DNA of 64,000 nucleotides from IMG/VR virus record IMGVR_UViG_2698536484_000026; one strand, written 5' to 3'. The number at the start of each line of letters is the position of its first letter. Within the stretch, counting starts at the first letter, position 1. Source of the stretch: a virus. Lineage: Duplodnaviria; Heunggongvirae; Uroviricota; Caudoviricetes. Of the stretch, positions 2,759 through 46,529 are shown one piece after another. A model generated the notes under the pieces. The model saw nothing but the letters and a program-made list of their open reading frames with translations. It had not been told where the DNA came from and ran no database searches. A program made the position numbers and the translations under genes.

Positions 2759-3178
2759 ATGTTTAGTGAAATGTTGCTTGAAGATGAACTGGATCGGAAA
2801 ACAACAGAGGCTTTGATTCGTGTAGCGGACGAACATTCCCGGTCGCTTATGAGCGATCGAGAGGCTCGTCTGGCTATTCGTGCCATATTCGAAACTGCGC
2901 AGGGGCTTGTTGGTACACAAGTGGGTGAAGCCATTAACATCGCCATGTCTCAGTTCAGTGAAGGCAGTAAAAAGCCTCTGTTTCCTATGCATTTGATGCT
3001 GGCTGGTGGCACGGTGCTTTATATCTCTGTTTGTCTGGATAGCAACCAAATCAATATTCTCAACACTGTGTCAGGTAAGTGGAAAGATCCGATTGTCTGT
3101 GAAACCAGTGAAGAAACTTTGAAAAAAGCGGCTCAATTTGTACGTAGCGCACTACTTAAGGGCGCTAAGAAGTTGTAA
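2759..3178 (+). CDS. Hypothetical protein
   Basis: ORF with AGGA-type RBS context, same strand as operon. Confidence 0.4.
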   Translation: MFSEMLLEDELDRKTTEALIRVADEHSRSLMSDREARLAIRAIFETAQGLVGTQVGEAINIAMSQFSEGSKKPLFPMHLMLAGGTVLYISVCLDSNQINILNTVSGKWKDPIVCETSEETLKKAAQFVRSALLKGAKKL

Positions 3179-3187
3179 GGAGTAGTA

Positions 3188-3982
3188 ATGGGACAACCGG
3201 TAGACATAACAGGTAAACGTTTTGGAAAGTTGGTTGCACTTAAATATTCCGGTATTTCAAACAAACAAGGGCGACTTTGGGATTGCATCTGCGATTGCGG
3301 CAACACCTGCCTGGTTAGTTACGGGAAGCTAAATCACGGGGCGACAATATCGTGTGGCTGTGTCTACAACGCACATCGCCGTAGCGTAAAGCCTCATGGT
3401 ATGAGTAAAACGCCAATTTATCGTATATGGCTGGGTATGCGGGAACGATGTGAAAAACCAACCCATCACGCCTATAAGTGGTATGGCGGCCGAGGTATCA
3501 AAGTCTGCGAGCGGTGGCAAATATTTGAAAACTTTTATGCTGACATGGGAGAGCGACCAGAGGGGATGTCTCTTGATCGCAAAGATGTGAATGGTGACTA
3601 CGAACCTGAAAATTGCAGATGGGCGACTTTTGAAGAACAGGCCAATAACACGCGTTCAAACTTAATTTTGGAGCATAAGGGGGAAAAGCTGACTCTCTCA
3701 CAATGGGCTAAAAGAGCCGGGATTCAGACATCAACTCTTCACTATCGAATCAAGAAAGGGTGGCCATTAGATCGCGCGCTTAACGCCAGCGTCGACACGT
3801 ATGCCAACCGAGATAGTAAGCGTCTGATCGAGTGTCGCGGCAGAACTCAGCGAATTACCGAATGGGCTAGAGAGGTTGGCTTGACTGCGACCATTATCTC
3901 GCAGCGAATTTTGAGGGGGTGGGATGTTGAAGCTGCCATCTTCACACCGTCCAAACGACCAGTAAAAGGAGATAAAAAGTGA
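3188..3982 (+). CDS. HNH endonuclease (phage homing-endonuclease type)
   Basis: YRIWLGMRERC and NGDYEPENCRWATFEEQANNTR motifs typical of phage HNH endonucleases. Confidence 0.65.
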   Translation: MGQPVDITGKRFGKLVALKYSGISNKQGRLWDCICDCGNTCLVSYGKLNHGATISCGCVYNAHRRSVKPHGMSKTPIYRIWLGMRERCEKPTHHAYKWYGGRGIKVCERWQIFENFYADMGERPEGMSLDRKDVNGDYEPENCRWATFEEQANNTRSNLILEHKGEKLTLSQWAKRAGIQTSTLHYRIKKGWPLDRALNASVDTYANRDSKRLIECRGRTQRITEWAREVGLTATIISQRILRGWDVEAAIFTPSKRPVKGDKK

Positions 3983-4527
3983 TTGCTACAGGGGTGGACA
4001 TCGAATCAACAGGTCTTGATTTCCTCTCAGGCCATAAAATCATTGAAATCGCAATGGTGAAGTACGAAATTGAGACACAGACAATGGTTGATAGTTTTGT
4101 AATGCGGTTCAACCCGCGTCGCAGTATCGATCCGAAAGCGCAAGCGGTACACGGCATCAGTCTTGAAGATTTAGCCGCCGAGCCGTTACTAGCCGATCAC
4201 GCTTCATCTGTCGCTTCGTATCTCTCTTCTTCCGATATTTGGATAGCCCACAACGGCGAAGCGTTCGATATTCCGTTTATTAGGCATGAGCTGAAAAGTT
4301 ACGGTTTTTCGCTTCCAGACATCCCATTGATTGACACTCTATTTTCCCTGTGGGCCACAGAAGACGGTAAACGTCCCCGCCTTGAAGAGTTGGCCTTCTC
4401 TCTTGGCTTTATATACGATCATGCCAAAGCACATAGTGCCTTATATGACACAAACTTAATGATGCAATGCTTCTTTAAGGCACGTAATAAGTACGGATTT
4501 TTTAAATTACCCTCTGAAATTGTGTAA
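3979..4527 (+). CDS. DnaQ-like 3'-5' exonuclease (DEDDh)
   Basis: Exo I DIESTGLD, Exo II IAHNGEAFDIPFI, Exo III HSALYDT. Confidence 0.7.
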   Translation: MIATGVDIESTGLDFLSGHKIIEIAMVKYEIETQTMVDSFVMRFNPRRSIDPKAQAVHGISLEDLAAEPLLADHASSVASYLSSSDIWIAHNGEAFDIPFIRHELKSYGFSLPDIPLIDTLFSLWATEDGKRPRLEELAFSLGFIYDHAKAHSALYDTNLMMQCFFKARNKYGFFKLPSEIV

Positions 4528-4533
4528 AACAAA

Positions 4534-4570
4534 AGCCTACTTTAAAAAGTTTAAAGTAGGCTTTCTTTTA
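4534..4570 (+). terminator. Rho-independent terminator-like hairpin
   Basis: agcctacttta/taaagtaggct stem followed by T-rich run. Confidence 0.5.
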
Positions 4571-4685
4571 AAGAACAGTCGCCTTTCAATCATTTCCTGC
4601 CTGTATTTAATACTTTTCCGCCTGATAGGTTTAGTCAAAATGTAGCCATCGAAACGCAAATGCAACTAAACAGAAGGAGACTTAC

Positions 4686-5495
4686 ATGAGTTCGGTTGAA
4701 AATGTAATGACAAATGATGATCTGGATGAGCTGACAGCCATGTTGCAATCACTTGATGAACCAGTAAAAAAAGCTGCACAGGTTGAAAATACTGATGATA
4801 TTGACGATCTGCTTCTCGGCCTCGATGCTGGCGTAGCCATGAGTTCTGATGATGTTGCCGAAGAACTGTTCAATGAAGAAAAAGCAGGTGATTTCAGCTC
4901 CGCTTTAAATGAGTTGGAGTTAGCTCATGAGCCTATAAACGTAATTAAGGCTGAAAGTGTTGAATCTGCCGAAAACGAGCCAGAACAATTGGGATTTATT
5001 GAGGTTGAAGAGTGTGTTGAGGTTAATGATGAATTAAAAGTTCAACAGTCAAATGATAGCAATACAAATAAAAAAGCTCGTACTGCAAGAGGTCCTCGTT
5101 TTACTTTAAGTGATAAAGATTATTTGTTTTTCAATAAAGCAGGCTTAGAAAAAGATATTTTCTTAGACGCTTACGAAAACGCGCCTGTCAAAGCAAAGGA
5201 TAAGATATTAAACCTTCTTAATTGGTTTAGCGGAGGTCCAGATATTAGTGTTTACACGGTAATTTCCATGAGACACCTTCTCACAGAAAAGAAGGCTACA
5301 AGTAATAGTATTAAGATTGCTTTAATGAGCAATCCAGAAAAACCGTATCCGCTTAACACTGCGTCAACTCAGGCTGGGCAAATGATGGCTGTATTTCCAG
5401 CTACAGGAATTGCTGTTAGAGACGGTGGAAATCTAACATTGAACGAAGAATCACCGATCGTTAAGAAGTTTGTCGCGGAGTACACTATTGGATGA
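4686..5495 (+). CDS. Hypothetical protein with highly acidic N-terminal half
   Basis: About 120 aa D/E-rich N-terminus, basic C-terminus; RBS GGAGA upstream. Confidence 0.45.
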   Translation: MSSVENVMTNDDLDELTAMLQSLDEPVKKAAQVENTDDIDDLLLGLDAGVAMSSDDVAEELFNEEKAGDFSSALNELELAHEPINVIKAESVESAENEPEQLGFIEVEECVEVNDELKVQQSNDSNTNKKARTARGPRFTLSDKDYLFFNKAGLEKDIFLDAYENAPVKAKDKILNLLNWFSGGPDISVYTVISMRHLLTEKKATSNSIKIALMSNPEKPYPLNTASTQAGQMMAVFPATGIAVRDGGNLTLNEESPIVKKFVAEYTIG

Positions 5496-5570
5496 CGTTC
5501 CCCTACTGAAAATAAAGCCCATAGAGAGCTTTATAGTGCTGGGTAAGCTAACCCATACCCAGCACCACAA

Positions 5571-5616
5571 AAACGCGCCAGAGAGCTTCTTGTTCGCATT
5601 TCTGGCGCGTTTTATT
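5571..5616 (+). terminator. Rho-independent terminator
   Basis: cgcgccaga...tctggcgcg stem followed by tttta. Confidence 0.5.
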
Positions 5617-5677
5617 TGATTGCCATACATAAAATCAAATGCAAAAATAGGTAATCACTTACCTATCGAGAAAGAAG

Positions 5678-6271
5678 ATGATTGCAGCCGAAAAAATCAA
5701 ACAGCGAAAGCGCGACAACTCTCTTCGTGACCTCTGGAGAACACCTGATTGGCTGTTTTCTGCCATTCAACGTTATCTTGGAGTGACATTTGATGTTGAC
5801 GTTGCCTGCAACAAGGACAACGCAAAGCTGCCTAATTTCATAGGCATTGAGCGTGATGCTTTGAAATCTGAATGGGGACAGCCAGGTACAATTGCCTTCC
5901 TCAATCCACCCTACTCCAAAATCTCCCCCTGGATTGATGCTGCTATACGTGAGCAGGCTCGCGGAGTTACAACAGTGATTCTAATTCCTCAATCCCTCGA
6001 TACAAAGTGGTATGAGCGTGCAACAGAGTATGCGAATGAGACGATTATTCTGTCTGGTGGCCGCGTAGCGTTTGTCGAGCCTGACGTCAATTTGGGTCAG
6101 GTAGAAGTAAACATCAACCCCGGTGGCAGTATGCTCGTTGTTTTTCGAGGATTCTGTCAGGACGCTGGGCACTCTATAAGCAAGATCCCTTTGGACGTCA
6201 TGAAAAGTCTGGGAGGGTATGATCCTGCGAATGTGGTCAGGAAAAAAAGACCATCAAAGAAGGCTGCTTAG
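5678..6271 (+). CDS. Phage Dam-like DNA N6-adenine methyltransferase
   Basis: DLWRTPDWLF and LNPPYS motifs. Confidence 0.7.
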   Translation: MIAAEKIKQRKRDNSLRDLWRTPDWLFSAIQRYLGVTFDVDVACNKDNAKLPNFIGIERDALKSEWGQPGTIAFLNPPYSKISPWIDAAIREQARGVTTVILIPQSLDTKWYERATEYANETIILSGGRVAFVEPDVNLGQVEVNINPGGSMLVVFRGFCQDAGHSISKIPLDVMKSLGGYDPANVVRKKRPSKKAA

Positions 6272-6292
6272 TTTGTTCTGGCGTCTGTAATT

Positions 6293-6351
6293 AGCCTGCT
6301 TCTGTATATATAAATAACTACATATTAATTATTAATATACGGAAGCAGGCT
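6293..6351. repeat. Large inverted-repeat element (copy 1 of a conserved element)
   Basis: Perfect 10-bp arms AGCCTGCTTC / GAAGCAGGCT around a 39-nt AT-rich loop containing CTGTATATATAAATAA; repeated at 37413-37461. Confidence 0.5.
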
Positions 6352-6456
6352 GTTTTGTATCAGAGACTCCAGACCTGAACATCACTACAGAATCCACTAG
6401 AACCCTTCCCAGACGCTTTAAAATCGATTTTATGAACCACTTTAAGGAAAACTAAC

Positions 6457-6687
6457 ATGCCATACCCGACCAATGTTGTTGCGCTCGTAGAGAGCGATTT
6501 TCTGGCTAAGGCTCGTGAAATGATGAAAGATCGCGAGCAGGCTTTCAACTTGTACGAATGGGCAATTAAGTGCTTGCATCTTGGGGAGCATCGCGAACTT
6601 GTTGAACAGCTTTTAGGTGAGTTGATCAACGAGGTGTTTGCCTTGAATGTTCAACTACATGGTCGAGAAAATAATCAATCGAAATGA
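6457..6687 (+). CDS. Hypothetical small protein
   Basis: ORF with RBS-like AAGGAAAA upstream. Confidence 0.35.
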   Translation: MPYPTNVVALVESDFLAKAREMMKDREQAFNLYEWAIKCLHLGEHRELVEQLLGELINEVFALNVQLHGRENNQSK

Positions 6688-7271
6688 TAGATAAGTACAA
6701 ACTATTCATAAGATGAATTGTAAGTGCTAAGATCTGATAGTTTCCAGTCGTAGACTGGAGACTCGACCTGATGGGTGGGGGTAAGCGTCACTGGCGTCAG
6801 GTTTAAAAAAGTTCACTACCAGCGTAGAACCGGTGCCGTTTAGGTGTCGGGGAAGGGGGAACCAAAGTGAGCGGAGACAAGGGTCACTTTATGATTGTCG
6901 AGTCTGGGGTGTTTCGAGAGGTTGAATCCAGTACTCCCCTTCATAAAGTGTGGGAAGATCTCGGTTCTGGGGTGCTGTCATCCATAACTTCCCAAGTCTA
7001 AGCTGGCAGTAGACTTAGACCATAACTTTTCAGGTTATGAAACGACCAGGTTGGTGAGGGATTTTTATACTCACCTCCCTGGGAGAGTATTACCTGAAAA
7101 GACAACCTCTCACTTCGTTCGAGGTGAACTTCACTCACTTCGTTCGTTCAGTTCAGGTTTATAAAAACCTGTTCTGGGAAGTAATTTGTTTATTTTAATA
7201 ATTATTAACACGCACGCGTGTGCGCACGCGCGAGGAAAAAAATCGGCGCGGCGCTTGATTCAGGAGTTTAT

Positions 7272-7865
7272 ATGACGACGAAGACACCAGCCCGATCGCA
7301 AGCAAAAACTCGCAAAAAAGCCAAAAACAAAAATTCTCCCCGCACCAATCCCACAACGCCTGTCGTAGAGTTCAATCCCCAGCTTAAAACCGTGAAAATC
7401 TTCAGTGATGGCTCTTGCCTTAAAAATCCGGGTGGCCCGGGCGGTTACGGTATCGTTCTTCAGTATCGTGGAGAGGAACGCGAGTTCTCAGATGGTTTTC
7501 ATAGCACCACCAATAACCGCATGGAGATGATGGGGGCACTTATCGGGCTGGAGCGTTTGAAATATCCATGCAACGTTATTTTACACTCTGATAGCCAGTA
7601 TCTGAAAAACGGCATGACACAGTGGATGAAATGGTGGAAACGCAATGGATGGATGACTTCTGACAAAAAACCGGTAAAGAATGTTGATCTGTGGAAGCGT
7701 CTGGATGAGGCCGCAAGTCGACATAATGTTCGCTGGAAGTGGGTTAAAGGTCACGCCGGGCATCGTGAAAATGAAATATGTGATCGACTCGCGAAGATCG
7801 CAGCTTTTTCAGCAGCAGATATGCCTCACAAGAAAGATATTGGTTTTGTTTATAACAAGCGGTAA
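7272..7865 (+). CDS. rnhA: Ribonuclease H (RNase HI-like) with basic N-terminal extension
   Basis: [52 protein letters not shown] match RNase HI. Confidence 0.75.
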
Positions 7866-8010
7866 GTAAGTGTTTACCTATCATTTTAAATCATGTATCT
7901 TATCGGCGTCAGGATGACAATGTGTCGGTAAGACACAGTTCCAGGATGGAACGAGAAAGGCGGCTGGCAATCGCCAGCCGCAACTCTTTCTGACACTGGA
8001 TGGAGTCCAC

Positions 8011-8505
8011 ATGGCACGTCAAACCTATTTCACTTCTGCAACTAAACGTCCTCGTTCTTTACGTCAAATTTTGGCCGAATTATTTAGCGGTCGTGTTATG
8101 TCACGTCTTGATGAACTAGAGACTACCGTTCGGTTGCTGAATGAACGTTTAGATAATCAAGCGTCAGTTGTTGCGAACGTGGGGGCGATTGTTGCCTCTG
8201 GTTCTTCACGCGAAGCGAAAAGTACACGGCCTTTAGTGAAGGAGAAAAACAACAAGGACAGTTCGAATGGAAAATTTTCAAAGAAAGAGGCTGAAACCAA
8301 TGGCCTACGTTCTCATTATAGTTTCACTGGCGACGGTAGCCGTTCCAGCCGGCCAGAGCCTTTTGATGCCGGATTCATCCATCACCACACCTTCGTCGAC
8401 GACAATTACCACCACTCCAGTGGAGCGTCCTGTCACTCTGGATGGGATGGCGGTGGATGCGATACCTCAAGTTCATCCAGTTACTCAGGATCATGCTGTG
8501 ACTAA
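8011..8505 (+). CDS. Hypothetical protein (C-terminal part questionable; overlaps next ORF in another frame)
   Basis: Good RBS and coiled-coil-like N-terminus; C-terminal 60 aa looks like out-of-frame low-complexity translation. Confidence 0.25.
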   Translation: MARQTYFTSATKRPRSLRQILAELFSGRVMSRLDELETTVRLLNERLDNQASVVANVGAIVASGSSREAKSTRPLVKEKNNKDSSNGKFSKKEAETNGLRSHYSFTGDGSRSSRPEPFDAGFIHHHTFVDDNYHHSSGASCHSGWDGGGCDTSSSSSYSGSCCD

Positions 8506-9519: not shown

Positions 9520-10086
9520 ATGTGCAAGAAATGCAAAGCGATAGCTGATGAACAAAACGCCTTATTCGAAGAAATGGATGCTAATGAACTGGTCAAAATG
9601 TTAGCCATTCTTCGAGGAATAGAAGACGTTTCCATATTTGAGAGAGTGGTTACAGCACTTAATTATGAGTCCGCCTTTGAAGAGCCAACTCAGATTGTAG
9701 CTTTAGCACATCATTTCGGTGTTCATTATCTTGCTGAAAAAGAGAGAGCTGATAAGTTGCAAGCGACTTTGGATATGGTGAGCGAGACTCAAGGATCTCA
9801 TGACGGTAATAAAAGTGAGACGATTATTGCCAGCAAAGATCGTGAAATTGCCGGGCTTAAATCCTCTCTAACGATGTTGATGTCTGCAATTAACCTTATG
9901 TCTTCTAAAGCAGGTTATAAAATGCCATCACTAAACAGCGACGATCCGATGGCCGTTCGCCAGCTTTTAGGTGCAATGGCCGACCAGCTCGACGACACAA
10001 AGAGTCGCCTTGAAGACATGATGCGGGAGCTCACGCATCGCCATGACTTGAATAAGCAGCCGCACAAAACGCAATACGCACTCTAA
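9520..10086 (+). CDS. Hypothetical protein
   Basis: ORF preceded by conserved AAGAAAACAACTTGTTT motif and RBS; terminator hairpin 10104-10119 after it. Confidence 0.45.
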   Translation: MCKKCKAIADEQNALFEEMDANELVKMLAILRGIEDVSIFERVVTALNYESAFEEPTQIVALAHHFGVHYLAEKERADKLQATLDMVSETQGSHDGNKSETIIASKDREIAGLKSSLTMLMSAINLMSSKAGYKMPSLNSDDPMAVRQLLGAMADQLDDTKSRLEDMMRELTHRHDLNKQPHKTQYAL

Positions 10087-10227: not shown

Positions 10228-11913
10228 ATGAATACAGCCCTTTCTATCATCGACGATGCCAGCTCAAACACGGCTATCGACTATCGTCAGGAAATGAATG
10301 TCATCCACGAAATCGTGGCCGAGTGCGAGAAAGAGATCGCCTTCATGTATCAGGTACACGACTTCGTTTATGGCGACGAACGCCACAACATGATTAATCG
10401 CCTGCTGAGACTAAACCATCGACCAGATGAAGATCGCTCGCGTTTAAATCGAGGTTGGTTGGATAAAGTCGATCTGGAATGGGTGAAACAGAATATTTGG
10501 GCCGAGTACTGGAGGAAGGTCACGGACATGACTAACGTTTTGCTGATCATGCCAGCTTCCCGTCGAGATGAGTGGCGCGAGCAGTTTATAGAGGGCAAAC
10601 AGGAAGTCATCAAAACTGACAGAACCGGCTACCAGATGAAGGTTAAAGAGTTCGTTGGTGTACCGGAGTTCAAAGCAGAAACGGTCATACCCACGATGCT
10701 TAATTTGCTGAATGACAGGCACAAATATCTCTCTGAGCGCGTGTATGGCTTGTTTAAGGCGCTGAGTCCTGCGCACAAGACAAATAAGACAAACGGTTTC
10801 AGCGAGCGTCTGATAATCGCTGACTGCATTTCTGATTTCTGGCGGGACAGCGTTAGCGTGAACTATCGCAAAGAGGACTACATCGACGATCTGCGTGTCT
10901 TGCTTCATTTCTTCGCGCACAAAGAATTTATTACCATCAACCGCACTGCTGAGGTGCTATCAGCTGCGTATAGGGCAAACGACTGCCAGACCGGTGACTG
11001 GATGAACGTCGATGGAAATCTGATGCGCGTGAAGATGTTCAAGAACGGCAACGTTCACTTTGAAATACATCCTGACGTGGCCTGGAAGTTGAATGAGGTG
11101 CTGGCTTACAGTATGCCTGCTGCAATCCCCGCGCCATGCCGAACTGCGCCAAAAACACGGGCACCAAAGCAGTTCGGTTTAATCCAGAAGACGATCTCCG
11201 TGCCGGTTCGCACTGCGCTTCGTGACGGGCGATTGAGCAAAGACAAAGGCGTATGGTACTTCTCTGATTCAGCTCTCCAGAAGTCGCAGGTGGAAGAGCT
11301 TGAGCGCACACTTAGCTTCATTGGCGGCGTGCAGGAGAAAAAGCACTGGCAGTTCCCGTATGAGATCGGCCATACGCTAAATACGATTGTGGCTACCGGA
11401 TTAATACCGGATACAAAATCACACCAGTTCTACCCTACCCCACGCTTGATTGCTGAGTACGTTGCCAGAGCCACTGAATTGAAGCCTGGTGAGAAGCTGC
11501 TGGAGCCTCAAGCCGGACGTGGGGAGCTTCTGGCCTATATTAACGCCGATCTGGAAGATGTTACCTGCATAGAAATCGCACCTCTCTTCGCTGATATCCT
11601 GCGTGGAAAAGGGTATACGAACACGATTTGCTGCGACTTCATAAAGTGGTCTGAGGACAACGCAGGTTATCAGTTCGACAAAATCGTTATGAACCCGCCG
11701 TACTCGCTTGGTCGTCATAGAGAGCACACGATGGCTGCGCTGGGGCATCTGAAAGTCGGCGGGCGTCTTGTAGCAGTATTGCCGGGCACTGCGCCAATAC
11801 TGGACTGGATGACGATGGATAATTACGTTTATGCCAGAGGGAAGTCGTTTACCAACGAGTTTGAAGATACCGGGATCACAGTCAGCGTATACGTTTTCAA
11901 ACGCGTTAAATGA
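10228..11913 (+). CDS. Putative N6-adenine methyltransferase fused to a large N-terminal domain of unknown function
   Basis: C-terminal FYPTP, EPQAGRGELL and NPPYS motifs; N-terminal 380 aa unassigned. Confidence 0.6.
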   Translation: MNTALSIIDDASSNTAIDYRQEMNVIHEIVAECEKEIAFMYQVHDFVYGDERHNMINRLLRLNHRPDEDRSRLNRGWLDKVDLEWVKQNIWAEYWRKVTDMTNVLLIMPASRRDEWREQFIEGKQEVIKTDRTGYQMKVKEFVGVPEFKAETVIPTMLNLLNDRHKYLSERVYGLFKALSPAHKTNKTNGFSERLIIADCISDFWRDSVSVNYRKEDYIDDLRVLLHFFAHKEFITINRTAEVLSAAYRANDCQTGDWMNVDGNLMRVKMFKNGNVHFEIHPDVAWKLNEVLAYSMPAAIPAPCRTAPKTRAPKQFGLIQKTISVPVRTALRDGRLSKDKGVWYFSDSALQKSQVEELERTLSFIGGVQEKKHWQFPYEIGHTLNTIVATGLIPDTKSHQFYPTPRLIAEYVARATELKPGEKLLEPQAGRGELLAYINADLEDVTCIEIAPLFADILRGKGYTNTICCDFIKWSEDNAGYQFDKIVMNPPYSLGRHREHTMAALGHLKVGGRLVAVLPGTAPILDWMTMDNYVYARGKSFTNEFEDTGITVSVYVFKRVK

Positions 11914-11974
11914 TAGGTAAATACTTACTTAATTTGTGTAAGAATGTAGTAACTAAACGAGAAGAGAAAAACAC

Positions 11975-14814: not shown

Positions 14815-15377
14815 ATGAGATTTACTACCTGACGTTACGTGAACGTTATTCACCAAAACCAGCGCCTAAATGCTCTGTTTGTGGCGAGGAAATGTCAATA
14901 CAGCGCATATCTGGAGCACATGTTGTTTATGCCTGTTCCGGTGAGGGTGATGACGGATATTTTAAGATAGGGCGTACTTTTGCAGACGAACATTATGAAA
15001 AATCACGCGTAACAGTAGTTGATGATAGTGATCCCGATGTGATTGCACTGCTGGACGAACTGGATAAAAGACAGCAACACATCCGACGTCTTGAGCAGGA
15101 GAACGTAGAGATGGCCCTAACGCTTGAGAAACTGCGTGTTGAGCTGGAGACCGTTAAACAGCGGGAAAAGGATCTGTTTATGGAAAATGTTCGACTTAAG
15201 TCAGGTATAGCAGGTCTGATACACCTCGGTATTCGATATGCGGATGTCGAAGTCATGAAAATAGCTGGAGATGCCCAGCTTTCTACTCCCTGTACTGACA
15301 GCATCATAAACAGTATTGCATCAGGCGTTTTCACCAAAGAGGGTCAGCATGATGAGAACAGTAGAAGTTCGCGCTGA
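14811..15377 (+). CDS. Hypothetical protein with CxxC...C zinc-ribbon-like N-terminus
   Basis: CSVCGEEMS...YACSG; coupled ORF. Confidence 0.4.
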   Translation: MNEIYYLTLRERYSPKPAPKCSVCGEEMSIQRISGAHVVYACSGEGDDGYFKIGRTFADEHYEKSRVTVVDDSDPDVIALLDELDKRQQHIRRLEQENVEMALTLEKLRVELETVKQREKDLFMENVRLKSGIAGLIHLGIRYADVEVMKIAGDAQLSTPCTDSIINSIASGVFTKEGQHDENSRSSR

Positions 15378-34125: not shown

Positions 34126-34189
34126 AAACCTCTTTCCTTAGTGCCTTTTGTATGTTATTTGGCTATTATAATAAGTAAGTGATTACTTA

Positions 34190-37412: not shown

Positions 37413-37461
37413 CTGTATATATAAATAATAAGTAACTTATTAAATATATACGGAAGCAGGC
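37413..37461. repeat. Conserved element, copy 2 (CTGTATATATAAATAA...TATACGGAAGCAGGCT)
   Basis: About 50-bp match to 6302-6351; both followed by CCAGACCT within 30 bp. Confidence 0.5.
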
Positions 37462-38209: not shown

Positions 38210-39465
38210 TGGCAATCCCGTCCTCGCTCAGTCTTGTGCAACTGCATTCTGGACAGATGAAAGTCTTCCAGTCTCCGCATCGATTTAAAGTTGTTTGTGC
38301 TGGTCGACGCTGGGGAAAATCCCGGTTGTCGATCTCCACTATTATTCGTGCGGCGGCAAAGGAAAAAAAGCAAAGGGTCTGGTATGTCGCTCCTACTTAC
38401 CAGATGGCTCGCCAGATTTTGTGGGACGATCTACAGGAAGTTCTGCCTCGTAAGTGGGTTAGGAAAAAGAACGACACCACGATGACAATCGTGTTGAAGA
38501 ACGGTTCGGAGATCGCCCTCAAAGGTGCTGATAAGCCTGACACTCTGCGCGGCGTAGCGTTGCATTTTGTAGTGCTTGATGAATTTCAGGATATGAAGGC
38601 TGACACCTGGTACAAGGTGTTACGACCTACTCTTTCATCGACACGCGGCGGTGCACTGATCATTGGTACGCCAAAAGGCTTCTCGGAATTTCACAAACTG
38701 TGGACTATAGGCCAGAACGTAGAGCTGCAAAGAAAGGGACAGTGGAAGAGCTGGCAGTTTGTAACTGCCGATTCTCCGTTTGTACCTACGGCGGAAATTG
38801 AAGCTGCTAAGAACGATATGGACCCCAAATCGTTCGCTCAGGAGTACCTGGCCAGCTTTGAGAACATGTCCGGGCGCGTTTACTACCCGTTCGATCGTAA
38901 CGTGCATGTAAAACCGCTTCAGTTCAACCCTCGGTTGCCTATATGGGTAGGGCAGGACTTCAACATTGACCCGATGTCTTCAGTAATTTTGCAACCTCAG
39001 CCAAATGGTGAGCTATGGGCAATTGATGAATTGGTGCTCTTTTCCTCTAACACGGCAGAAGTTTGTGATGAGCTTGAGAGACGCTTCTGGCGCTGGAAAT
39101 CACAGGTAACGGTATTTCCAGATCCGGCAGGTGCTTATCGCCAACATGCTCGTGGGGAGTCTGACGTAGACATATTCAAAGAGAAGGGATTCTTACGTGT
39201 CGATTATTCGAAAAAGCACCCGCCAATTGCGGATCGTGTTAATGCTGTTAACCGAATGCTGATGTCCGCATCTGGAGATATCCGGCTGTATATCGATCCG
39301 AAGTGCAAGCATTTGATTGATTCACTGGAAAAAGTCATCTACAAGCCTGGAACACGAGATATGGATAAGACGGGTGGCATTGAGCATAGTGCAGACGCAT
39401 TGGGCTATCCAGTACATCGTAGGTATCCAGTCAAAAACCGTGTTATTCTTGGTGGTTCTAGATAG
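38209..39465 (+). CDS. Terminase large subunit
   Basis: Walker A CAGRRWGKS and Walker B VVLDEFQDM; upstream of portal. Confidence 0.8.
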   Translation: MAIPSSLSLVQLHSGQMKVFQSPHRFKVVCAGRRWGKSRLSISTIIRAAAKEKKQRVWYVAPTYQMARQILWDDLQEVLPRKWVRKKNDTTMTIVLKNGSEIALKGADKPDTLRGVALHFVVLDEFQDMKADTWYKVLRPTLSSTRGGALIIGTPKGFSEFHKLWTIGQNVELQRKGQWKSWQFVTADSPFVPTAEIEAAKNDMDPKSFAQEYLASFENMSGRVYYPFDRNVHVKPLQFNPRLPIWVGQDFNIDPMSSVILQPQPNGELWAIDELVLFSSNTAEVCDELERRFWRWKSQVTVFPDPAGAYRQHARGESDVDIFKEKGFLRVDYSKKHPPIADRVNAVNRMLMSASGDIRLYIDPKCKHLIDSLEKVIYKPGTRDMDKTGGIEHSADALGYPVHRRYPVKNRVILGGSR

Positions 39466-39491
39466 GTAAGTAATTACCTAAGGTTATTCAA

Positions 39492-42876: not shown

Positions 42877-42908
42877 TCAGTGAAGTAGATAGGTAATTAT
42901 CTATGTTA

Positions 42909-46455: not shown

Positions 46456-46529
46456 GTTAATAGGTAAGCATATACTTACTATTAGCGCAATGAATGCGTA
46501 GAATTAACGGAAAAAGGAGTTTTCCATCA

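Follow-up and report, generated by a model that had tools for sequence, protein, structure and literature searches.

A protein of SSU5-like phage-plasmids and related siphoviruses with a predicted winged helix and an acidic arm that carries motifs resembling the tips of gp32-type SSB tails

In phage T7, the acidic tail at the C-terminus of the gp4 helicase-primase imitates the tail of gp2.5, the protein that binds single-stranded DNA (an SSB), and both can dock on the same basic patch of a partner. Bacterial SSBs end in the tip DDDIPF, which is unlike the tip motif of the phage proteins considered below. In gp2.5, the acidic tail contacts partners in the replisome and is a competitor of DNA binding (PMC10359462). 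In phage T4, the amphipathic acidic helix in the C-terminal part of gp32 (…VADDLDAF…) docks on the Dda helicase, the extreme tip of gp32 is located beyond this Dda-binding helix, and the acidic end is thought to fill the protein's own binding site for single-stranded DNA (ssDNA) when no DNA is present (PMC11551737). Here we analyzed a stretch of 64,000 nucleotides (nt) from a virus of the Caudoviricetes (IMG/VR record IMGVR_UViG_2698536484_000026), referred to as the window, and in it the open reading frame (ORF) at 4686-5495. This ORF encodes a two-part protein with an acidic N-terminal arm, in which we found motifs resembling the tips of gp32-type SSB tails, and a conserved C-terminal domain that is predicted to be a winged helix. 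To our knowledge, no earlier work describes the regulation of phage replication by a free-standing SSB-tail mimic of this kind.

The window is an SSU5-like phage-plasmid, and its segment 4350-6400 is 98% identical to the Escherichia phages Cyrano (OV696614) and PhiR41_1. The Cyrano counterpart of the ORF is annotated as 'hypothetical protein', and the gene is 'hypothetical' in every source. The protein and its parts are laid out as follows.

4686-5495, + strand: ORF under study, ATG start, complete, 269 amino acids (aa); CYRAN_78 of phage Cyrano
4686-5078, + strand: acidic N-terminal arm, aa 1-131; 27% aspartate or glutamate (D/E), net charge -28
4719-4754, + strand: gp32-tip-like motif 1, aa 12-23, DLDELTAMLQSL; 11.7 bits with the SSB-tip matrix described below; predicted helix 10-32
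4788-4823, + strand: gp32-tip-like motif 2, aa 35-46, NTDDIDDLLLGL (DDIDDLLLGL); 13.9 bits; predicted helix 37-50
4926-5078, + strand: disordered spacer, variable and gappy, aa 81-131; predicted local distance difference test score (pLDDT) below 50
5070-5099, + strand: short basic linker KKARTARGPR, aa 129-138
5103-5483, + strand: conserved C-terminal domain, aa 140-266; winged-helix core at aa 189-252, with three helices before it

A sequence-only reading of this ORF had described an acidic N-terminus of about 120 residues, and its composition agrees with that description. Residues 1-120 include 34 D/E and 5 lysine or arginine (K/R), which amounts to 28% acidic residues and a net charge of -29, while aa 132-269 are neutral with a net charge of +3. 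The six frames of the window contain 66 ORFs that reach 120 aa, and none of the others has a 120-aa stretch as negative as that of this ORF (-30; runner-up -24); its lead in plain D/E fraction is narrow (0.29 vs 0.275). Sequence alignment divided the protein into three zones: short motifs at the N-terminus, a gappy and variable region at aa ~81-131, and a strongly conserved C-terminal region of ~130 aa. The conserved N-terminal motif set in the alignment of close homologues consists of DDLDELTAMLQSLDEP, IDDLLxGLD and GDLxxVxEELE.

The short motifs of the arm follow a recognizable pattern across the family. The consensus is D-E-L-D-A-L-L-x-D-L-D, which is present in one to three amphipathic copies per arm. 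A strict motif, [LIMV][DENQTS][AS][LIMF][LIMF], was found in the first 60 aa of 55 of 140 distant representatives, whereas shuffles that preserve the composition gave 3.9 +/- 1.9. The motif is centered on a median position of residue 16, with the logo D-E-L-[DE]-A-[LIM]-L-x-[DG]-L-[DE]. At least two copies of a looser motif were present in 30 proteins when 4 were expected. In the complete six-frame ORF set of Cyrano (44,142 aa), a loose form of the motif occurs five times, including CYRAN_78 and the tail of the SSB.

The same pattern is found at the end of the SSBs encoded by these phages. The gp32-type SSB of Cyrano is CYRAN_53 (L007:2763-3791; PF08804, E=2e-66) and its C-terminus is EGLDDLLRELDSL, or …ATEDEGLDDLLRELDSL when more of the tail is shown. 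The tip [LI]DD[LF]L is invariant in four SSBs with 29-34% mutual identity, and the motif is located within the last 14 residues in 53 of the 61 distinct SSB tails from related IMG/VR contigs. Typical SSBs of the clade end in GDPELDALLAGL, DELDDLLGDL, ELDALLAGL or GLDDLLRELDSL; T4 gp32 ends in DLDDLLNDL (longer, …ADDTDLDDLLNDL). The tips are trailed by 0-6 variable residues, suggesting that a free carboxylate is not required. We also observed that the tip [DE]-L-D-[DA]-L-L-x-x-L is common to the SSBs of the clade, those of L122-L201 included, and to T4 gp32, proteins that are otherwise very divergent.

The resemblance was quantified with a position matrix that was trained on 57 SSB tips alone and then scored on the arms of the family. 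Scores above the 95th percentile of shuffles were obtained for 105 of the 140 arms and above the 99th percentile for 82 (expected 7 and 1.4, respectively). When the matrix was run over the window, in which 150 ORFs reach 60 aa, the ORF at 4686-5495 ranked first with its two matches of 13.9 and 11.7 bits, and the next ORF scored 8.6. In several lineages the arm and the SSB tip on the same contig are alike, as in DEIDDLLAGLD and DEGLDDLLAELDAL, IDELDALFSELE and LDDLDALLEG, or LLDELLAKLDD and DDELSKLLADLK, where the arm is given first in each pair. As far as the libraries searched can tell, the SSB-tip motif in these arms has not been described previously.

Like the T4 gp32 'A domain' and other PF08804 SSB tails, the arm is acidic and disordered, and both have an amphipathic D/E-L-D-x-L-L motif. 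Unlike gp32-type SSBs, the protein has no PF08804 match and neither an OB-fold nor a zinc-finger SSB core. The arm also differs from gp32 tails in being N-terminal, ~130 aa long, often equipped with several copies of the motif and fused to the winged helix. While T7 gp4 is an enzyme of known function, the motif here is part of a small protein that is otherwise a winged helix only, and there is no sequence relationship between the two.

From the architecture, conservation, synteny and motif identity that we observed, we infer the binding partners, DNA binding by the winged helix and a biological role. SSB tails of this type recruit proteins of replication and recombination. We propose, with a probability of about one half, that the protein is an SSB-tail-mimicking adaptor or competitor in the phage replication and recombination machinery. 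The winged-helix end and the linker with its Lys, Arg and Pro residues would be the anchor, which most likely attaches to nucleic acid but could also attach to protein. The arm would be a free-standing copy of the SSB tail that occupies the same docking sites on replication or recombination proteins or on the SSB core. As an adaptor, the protein may bring the clients of the SSB tail to wherever the winged helix is located; as a competitor, it may regulate SSB-tail interactions during lytic DNA replication and recombination. Alternatively, the winged helix itself could be a receptor for the tip. Because the tip differs from that of bacterial SSBs and is kept across very different hosts, the partners are suggested to be encoded by the phage. 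A more elaborate version, which we put forward tentatively and regard as the less probable side of the question, is a dedicated and clade-wide 'SSB-tail decoy/adaptor' in the ~110-kb siphoviruses and phage-plasmids that use DnaE. Here the winged helix would park multivalent gp32 tips on DNA, or would be the tip receptor, and would thereby organize or gate the access of clients such as helicase, recombinase, nuclease and polymerase to SSB-coated DNA.

The structure of the protein was predicted with AlphaFold2. In the full-length model, aa 1-80 form helices with pLDDT values of 50-79, peaking at 79 for aa 11-20, the spacer at aa 81-131 is below 50 and aa 140-266 are above 90. The C-terminal domain modeled alone from a 48-sequence alignment reached a pLDDT of 95.4 and a predicted template modeling score (pTM) of 0.88. 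DSSP assigned, in domain numbering, helices at 58-70, 75-83 and 92-108 and strands at 72-73, 112-115 and 118-121. This order of helix, strand, helix, helix and a beta-hairpin wing is the winged-helix topology, and it is predicted to be shared with such domains as MecI/BlaI, MarR, AspA, F93 and the MukE/Nse kite proteins. In Foldseek searches against the PDB with the full-length and the domain-only models, nearly all matches were winged-helix proteins (MecI/BlaI, MarR, BigR, AspA, F93, E2F-DP, MukE/Nse and CRP/FNR). Their template modeling (TM) scores of 0.65-0.70 were obtained only when normalized to short targets, and the query-normalized TM was 0.45 or less. Against BFVD, the matches were unnamed viral proteins, one of them at E=6e-4. 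Unlike the solved winged helices, the domain has an extra three-helix cap at its N-terminus with an invariant PxKxxxKxxN helix, and the best E values were 0.18-0.25. Residues K169, K173, N176, T225 and Q232 are invariant in the domain. In the predicted fold, conserved polar residues are found at the canonical DNA-contact positions, which are the N-termini of H2 and H3 and the wing.

The two parts of the protein evolve at different rates. At the amino-acid level, the nonsynonymous rate (dN) of the arm is about three times that of the C-terminal domain, and identity over the whole protein is 54-59% where neighboring proteins are 73-90% identical. Synonymous sites were saturated in most pairs and close pairs alone were usable for dN/dS (omega). 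Where it could be measured, omega of the arm was ~0.1-0.2, which indicates purifying selection, and there was no sign of positive selection.

The family is large and uncharacterized. The protein matched phrog_5235 over its full length (E=1e-147) and phrog_3932 over aa 169-265 (E=4e-15); both were likewise matched by all of 60 diverse members, and the function of both is uncharacterized. Two sub-threshold chance matches and no family were returned by Pfam at E<=0.1. No match to the protein was found in NCBIfam, in PDB sequence searches with the single sequence and two profiles, or in PADLOC, the defense catalogue that was searched, at E<=1 with either the full protein or the C-terminal domain. 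Every match in a named search of 5.8 billion proteins was 'hypothetical', as were all 55 close homologues, which are on Enterobacteriaceae contigs of ~100-120 kb. With a profile built on the C-terminal domain, 639 clusters (at 50% identity) were recovered from 1.84 billion representatives. Nearly all of these proteins are 220-340 aa long with the domain at the C-terminus, and 183 of 197 retrieved sequences have 80 aa or more in front of it. For the 140 distant representatives, the median net charge of the N-terminal part without its last 30 residues is -20.5, and 90% are at -10 or below, which shows that the acidity is no quirk of a single sequence, and the last 30 aa before the domain have a median net charge of +2. 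An acidic arm, then a basic linker, then a winged helix is thus the arrangement kept across the family, indicating that this layout is selected though the sequence of the arm is not.

About 30 cultured phages carry a homologue. All are siphoviruses of 103-122 kb and belong to the SSU5-like, Pseudomonas nickie-like, Rhizobium RHEph10-like and Stenotrophomonas BUCTxx99/ANB28 groups. In 185,579 bacterial genomes, the distant group gave a single match, in a metagenome-assembled genome. This near absence indicates that those relatives are lytic and that the gene does not serve the plasmid state or lysogeny. In the transcriptome of an LF82 lysogen, the genes expressed in the plasmid state do not include CYRAN_78 (PMC9928086). 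The gene for the two-part protein belongs to the core genes of a clade of siphoviruses of ~100-120 kb, made up of the SSU5-like phage-plasmids and of lytic phages (nickie-, RHEph10- and BUCTxx99-like).

The genomic context of the family was examined next to these data. The two flanking genes in the window are the following.

3979-4527, + strand: DnaQ/RNase_T-type 3'-5' exonuclease; upstream neighbor conserved family-wide
5678-6271, + strand: Dam-family N6-adenine methyltransferase; PF05869, E=4e-37; 183 nt downstream of the ORF under study

The placement just upstream of a Dam-like methyltransferase, as the sequence-only reading had it, is correct for the window, and the order DnaQ, family gene, Dam was present in 76 of 77 SSU5-like IMG/VR loci. 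Beyond this group the two neighbors behave differently. Dam was near the family gene in none of 30 distant loci, whereas a DnaQ-like exonuclease was found 1.1-3.2 kb upstream in 28 of them. The association with DnaQ is kept in phages of Rhizobium, Pseudomonas, Stenotrophomonas and enterics, and RHEph10 has only 23 nt between the exonuclease gene and the family gene. Two further metagenomic contigs have the same block in the order dihydrofolate reductase (DHFR), AAA kinase-like gene, small ORF, RNase_T and family gene. Outside the set of 30, a Dam gene follows ~0.8 kb downstream at the locus L117, whose protein is 47% identical. The adjacency to Dam is a clade-specific accident of gene order, and the conserved association is with a nucleotide-metabolism and replication module. 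The replication genes of the clade include DnaE, a helicase, a primase, a gp32-like SSB, UvsX, UvsY, UvsW and RNase H. A profile made from very diverse members (A4) could not seed the locus search. The idea of a replication origin or initiator was dropped, as no iterons and no AT-rich or skew feature were present around 3900-8100.

We considered three other explanations for the two-part protein. The sequence-only reading had suggested that the acidic N-terminus is a possible DNA mimic with the composition of anti-restriction proteins, of which Ocr and ArdA are examples. In general terms, the arm would fill the DNA groove of a host nuclease (Type I restriction-modification enzymes, RecBCD or similar) and shield phage DNA on entry or during replication, either as a folded domain or as a flexible region tethered to DNA as in SPO1 Gp44. 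The overall D/E content and small size are indeed similar to those of Ocr (T7 gp0.3) and ArdA, the arm changes fast as measured by its dN and by the low identity of the whole protein, and in SSU5-like genomes the gene is located between an exonuclease and Dam with a DUF4942-fusion methylase nearby. Ocr and ArdA, however, are rigid folded dimers whose carboxylates trace B-DNA, while the arm is predicted to be disordered and the conserved part is a neutral winged helix, a domain that DNA-mimic decoys lack. The pLDDT below 50 at aa 81-131 leaves no rigid scaffold for a DNA-like array of charges, and the structure prediction therefore weighs against the claim. Neither the ORF nor 60 family members matched the Ocr (PF08684) or ArdA (PF07275) profiles, and Foldseek gave no match to Ocr or ArdA structures; there was no likeness to PADLOC, Pfam or PDB entries either. 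A precedent is Gp44, an early host-shutoff protein of Bacillus phages that binds the beta and beta' subunits of host RNA polymerase and inhibits growth; in it, a small helical motif that binds DNA is joined to a flexible acidic region, for which mimicry of ssDNA has been proposed (PMC8208478). Our protein is predicted to be similar in having a helical part of the DNA-binding type and a flexible acidic region, but the order of the domains is reversed and the acidic part of Gp44 has 57% D/E and no basic residues, compared with 27% D/E here. The nuclear magnetic resonance structure of Gp44 (6L6V) was not matched in PDB sequence searches, the library of which includes 6L6V, or by Foldseek. Moreover, anti-defense genes are usually patchy and host-specific, while this gene has a fixed place beside DnaQ across hosts and is without Dam nearby in the distant loci, the motif fits a phage-specific SSB tip and suggests phage-encoded rather than host partners, and the arm is under purifying selection. 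We thus consider a decoy for host restriction enzymes, including a flexible one anchored on DNA in the way of Gp44, very unlikely; what survives of the mimic idea is a flexible, SSB-tail-like electrostatic mimicry directed at phage replication proteins. A lesson for annotation is that acidic composition beside a methylase is insufficient for an anti-restriction call.

The two remaining explanations concern the winged helix and the charge layout. The protein could be a phage transcription factor or modulator of RNA polymerase, with the winged helix on a promoter or operator and the acidic arm on RNA polymerase as a switch of lytic-cycle expression. The arm would in that case be an activation region or an inhibitor akin to sigma70 region 1.1 or Gp44. 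The Foldseek results are dominated by winged helix-turn-helix repressors such as MecI/BlaI, MarR, BigR and CRP/FNR, and the polar residues at canonical DNA-contact positions are conserved. A unique conserved element upstream of the gene (4597-4641, see below) could be an autoregulatory operator, and SPO1 provides examples of modular factors with intrinsically disordered regions that act on RNA polymerase (PMC8208478; PMC13401047). Yet no clade-wide DNA motif was found in the intergenic regions of 31 distant loci, a palindrome of the SSU5-like genomes is missing in distant relatives with the same recognition helix, and this explanation leaves the copy of the SSB tip in the arm unexplained. The absence of basic residues from the recognition helix and the neutrality of the domain speak against a transcription factor and equally mean that DNA binding, as the anchor of our own proposal would have it, is not assured. 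We regard a transcription factor as unlikely, though a serious rival. It is also rather improbable, in our view, that the protein is a DNA- or protein-binding protein that regulates itself, in which the arm folds back on its own linker and winged helix for autoinhibition or solubility and selection for acidic amphipathic helices has produced the likeness to the SSB tip as a side effect. As this would predict, the distribution of charge (arm -28, positive linker, neutral domain) is conserved, D/E-rich disordered regions beside DNA-binding domains are known autoinhibitors (PMC10250230), and the pLDDT of 79 at aa 11-20 in the full-length model may reflect docking onto the domain. Pure charge effects, however, need no motif at a conserved position, and a matrix derived from the tail of another protein would not single out this ORF.

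Several observations weigh against our proposal of an SSB-tail-mimicking adaptor or competitor. The SSB gene lies outside the window and the comparison rests on the 98%-identical relative Cyrano. Roughly a quarter to 40% of the family members fall under the motif thresholds, and the BUCTxx99-like lineage has a weakly acidic arm with a poor motif. The motif is at or near the C-terminus in SSBs and near the N-terminus in our protein, and equivalent binding is assumed. The likeness could also be convergence on a generic acidic amphipathic helix. The Foldseek matches to PDB winged helices are statistically weak (best E 0.18, none at E<=0.001), and the neighboring module is one of nucleotide metabolism and exonuclease more than of the core replisome.

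Clinical Enterobacteriaceae commonly carry SSU5-like phage-plasmids, whose replication biology has hardly been studied. If the arm is a mimic of the SSB tail, an orphan family of 639 clusters would have a testable function, peptides of this protein could be used as baits for the phage proteins that read the gp32-type tip, and SSB-tail docking motifs would be shown to be transferable to separate adaptor proteins. Two other ORFs of the window might also use SSB-tail docking sites. An Ead/Ea22-like protein encoded at 14892-15377 has a weaker SSB-tip-like motif, SDPDVIALLDEL, at 8.6 bits. The 188-aa ORF at 9520-10086 corresponds to CYRAN_87; the Cyrano protein ends in RLEDMMREL, which fits the loose motif, and the copy in the window reads RLEDMMRELTH.

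The non-coding sequences on both sides of the ORF contain the following signals.

4527-4569, + strand: terminator-like hairpin and T-run, 3' of the exonuclease gene; -17.9 kcal/mol, z -4.5
4597-4641, + strand: conserved upstream non-coding element CTGCCTG-N10-CTTTTCCGCCTGATAGGTTTnGnCAAAAT; single copy in the window
4674-4679, + strand: ribosome-binding site AAGGAG; kept in relatives
5570-5613, + strand: terminator-like GC-rich hairpin and T-run, 3' of the ORF under study; -25.5 kcal/mol, z -5.0

Flanked by these signals, the ORF looks like a separate transcription unit. The element at 4597-4641 is kept in SSU5-like relatives despite diverged flanks, and is probably the promoter or operator of the ORF. 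It includes a TTGnCA box and two half-repeats, GCCTGnTA, at a spacing of 21 nt, and no sigma-70 consensus promoter was called there. A search for a clade-wide promoter or operator word in the 31 distant loci recovered just terminator tails and Shine-Dalgarno words, and the lead 'TACTGACT' dissolved. The box 'CAAATGCAA' shared by the upstream regions of the ORF and of Dam was not enriched. An Rfam scan of 4300-7300 gave sub-threshold chance matches only.

The palindrome TAGGTAA-N4-TTACCTA recurs in the window at 5648-5665, 7863-7880, 11914-11931, 34172-34189, 39463-39480, 42886-42903 and 46461-46478, with weaker copies at 37429 and 49127. The copies are in short intergenic gaps of the early and structural modules. 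At up to 3 mismatches there were 9 matches when 1.4 were expected, and 9 were reached in none of 100 shuffles. A copy is present between the family gene and Dam in 74 of 80 SSU5-like loci, where the arms are conserved and the 4-nt spacer is variable; the palindrome was not found in distant relatives. It could be the operator of a dimeric regulator or a 7-bp RNA hairpin beside ribosome-binding sites. A link between the palindrome and the winged helix was rejected, since the palindrome is also absent upstream of the ORF at 4686-5495.

Upstream of the DnaQ-like gene, the ORF at 2053-2697 is AAA_28/kinase-like with weak PHROG matches to clamp loader and thymidylate kinase, and the one at 2759-3178 encodes a 139-aa protein of the uncharacterized phrog_5373. 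Together with the exonuclease gene and the ORF at 4686-5495, they make up a four-gene block in many distant relatives. An HNH endonuclease ORF at 3188-3982 (phrog_374, E=2e-79) is located between the 139-aa ORF and the DnaQ-like gene; it is missing in Cyrano and PhiR41_1. Loci with the HNH gene have DnaQ alleles that are 92-100% identical to that of the window, while HNH-less loci are at 72-79%, with the exception of L020 at 93%. Neighbors other than DnaQ do not track the presence of the HNH gene. This pattern looks like co-conversion by a homing endonuclease.

Downstream, the ORF at 10228-11913 encodes DUF4942 fused to an N6-adenine methyltransferase (phrog_6263; PADLOC 'mad2', E=4e-16). With Dam at 5678-6271 it makes two orphan methylases, which are more plausible anti-restriction devices than the protein studied here. 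The 44-aa ORF at 6867-7001, which is CYRAN_81, is inside the long and largely non-coding stretch 6688-7217. CYRAN_81 is reported to be expressed 12-fold over the local background in the LF82 lysogen (PMC9928086), and this ORF may be a moron or a small regulator.

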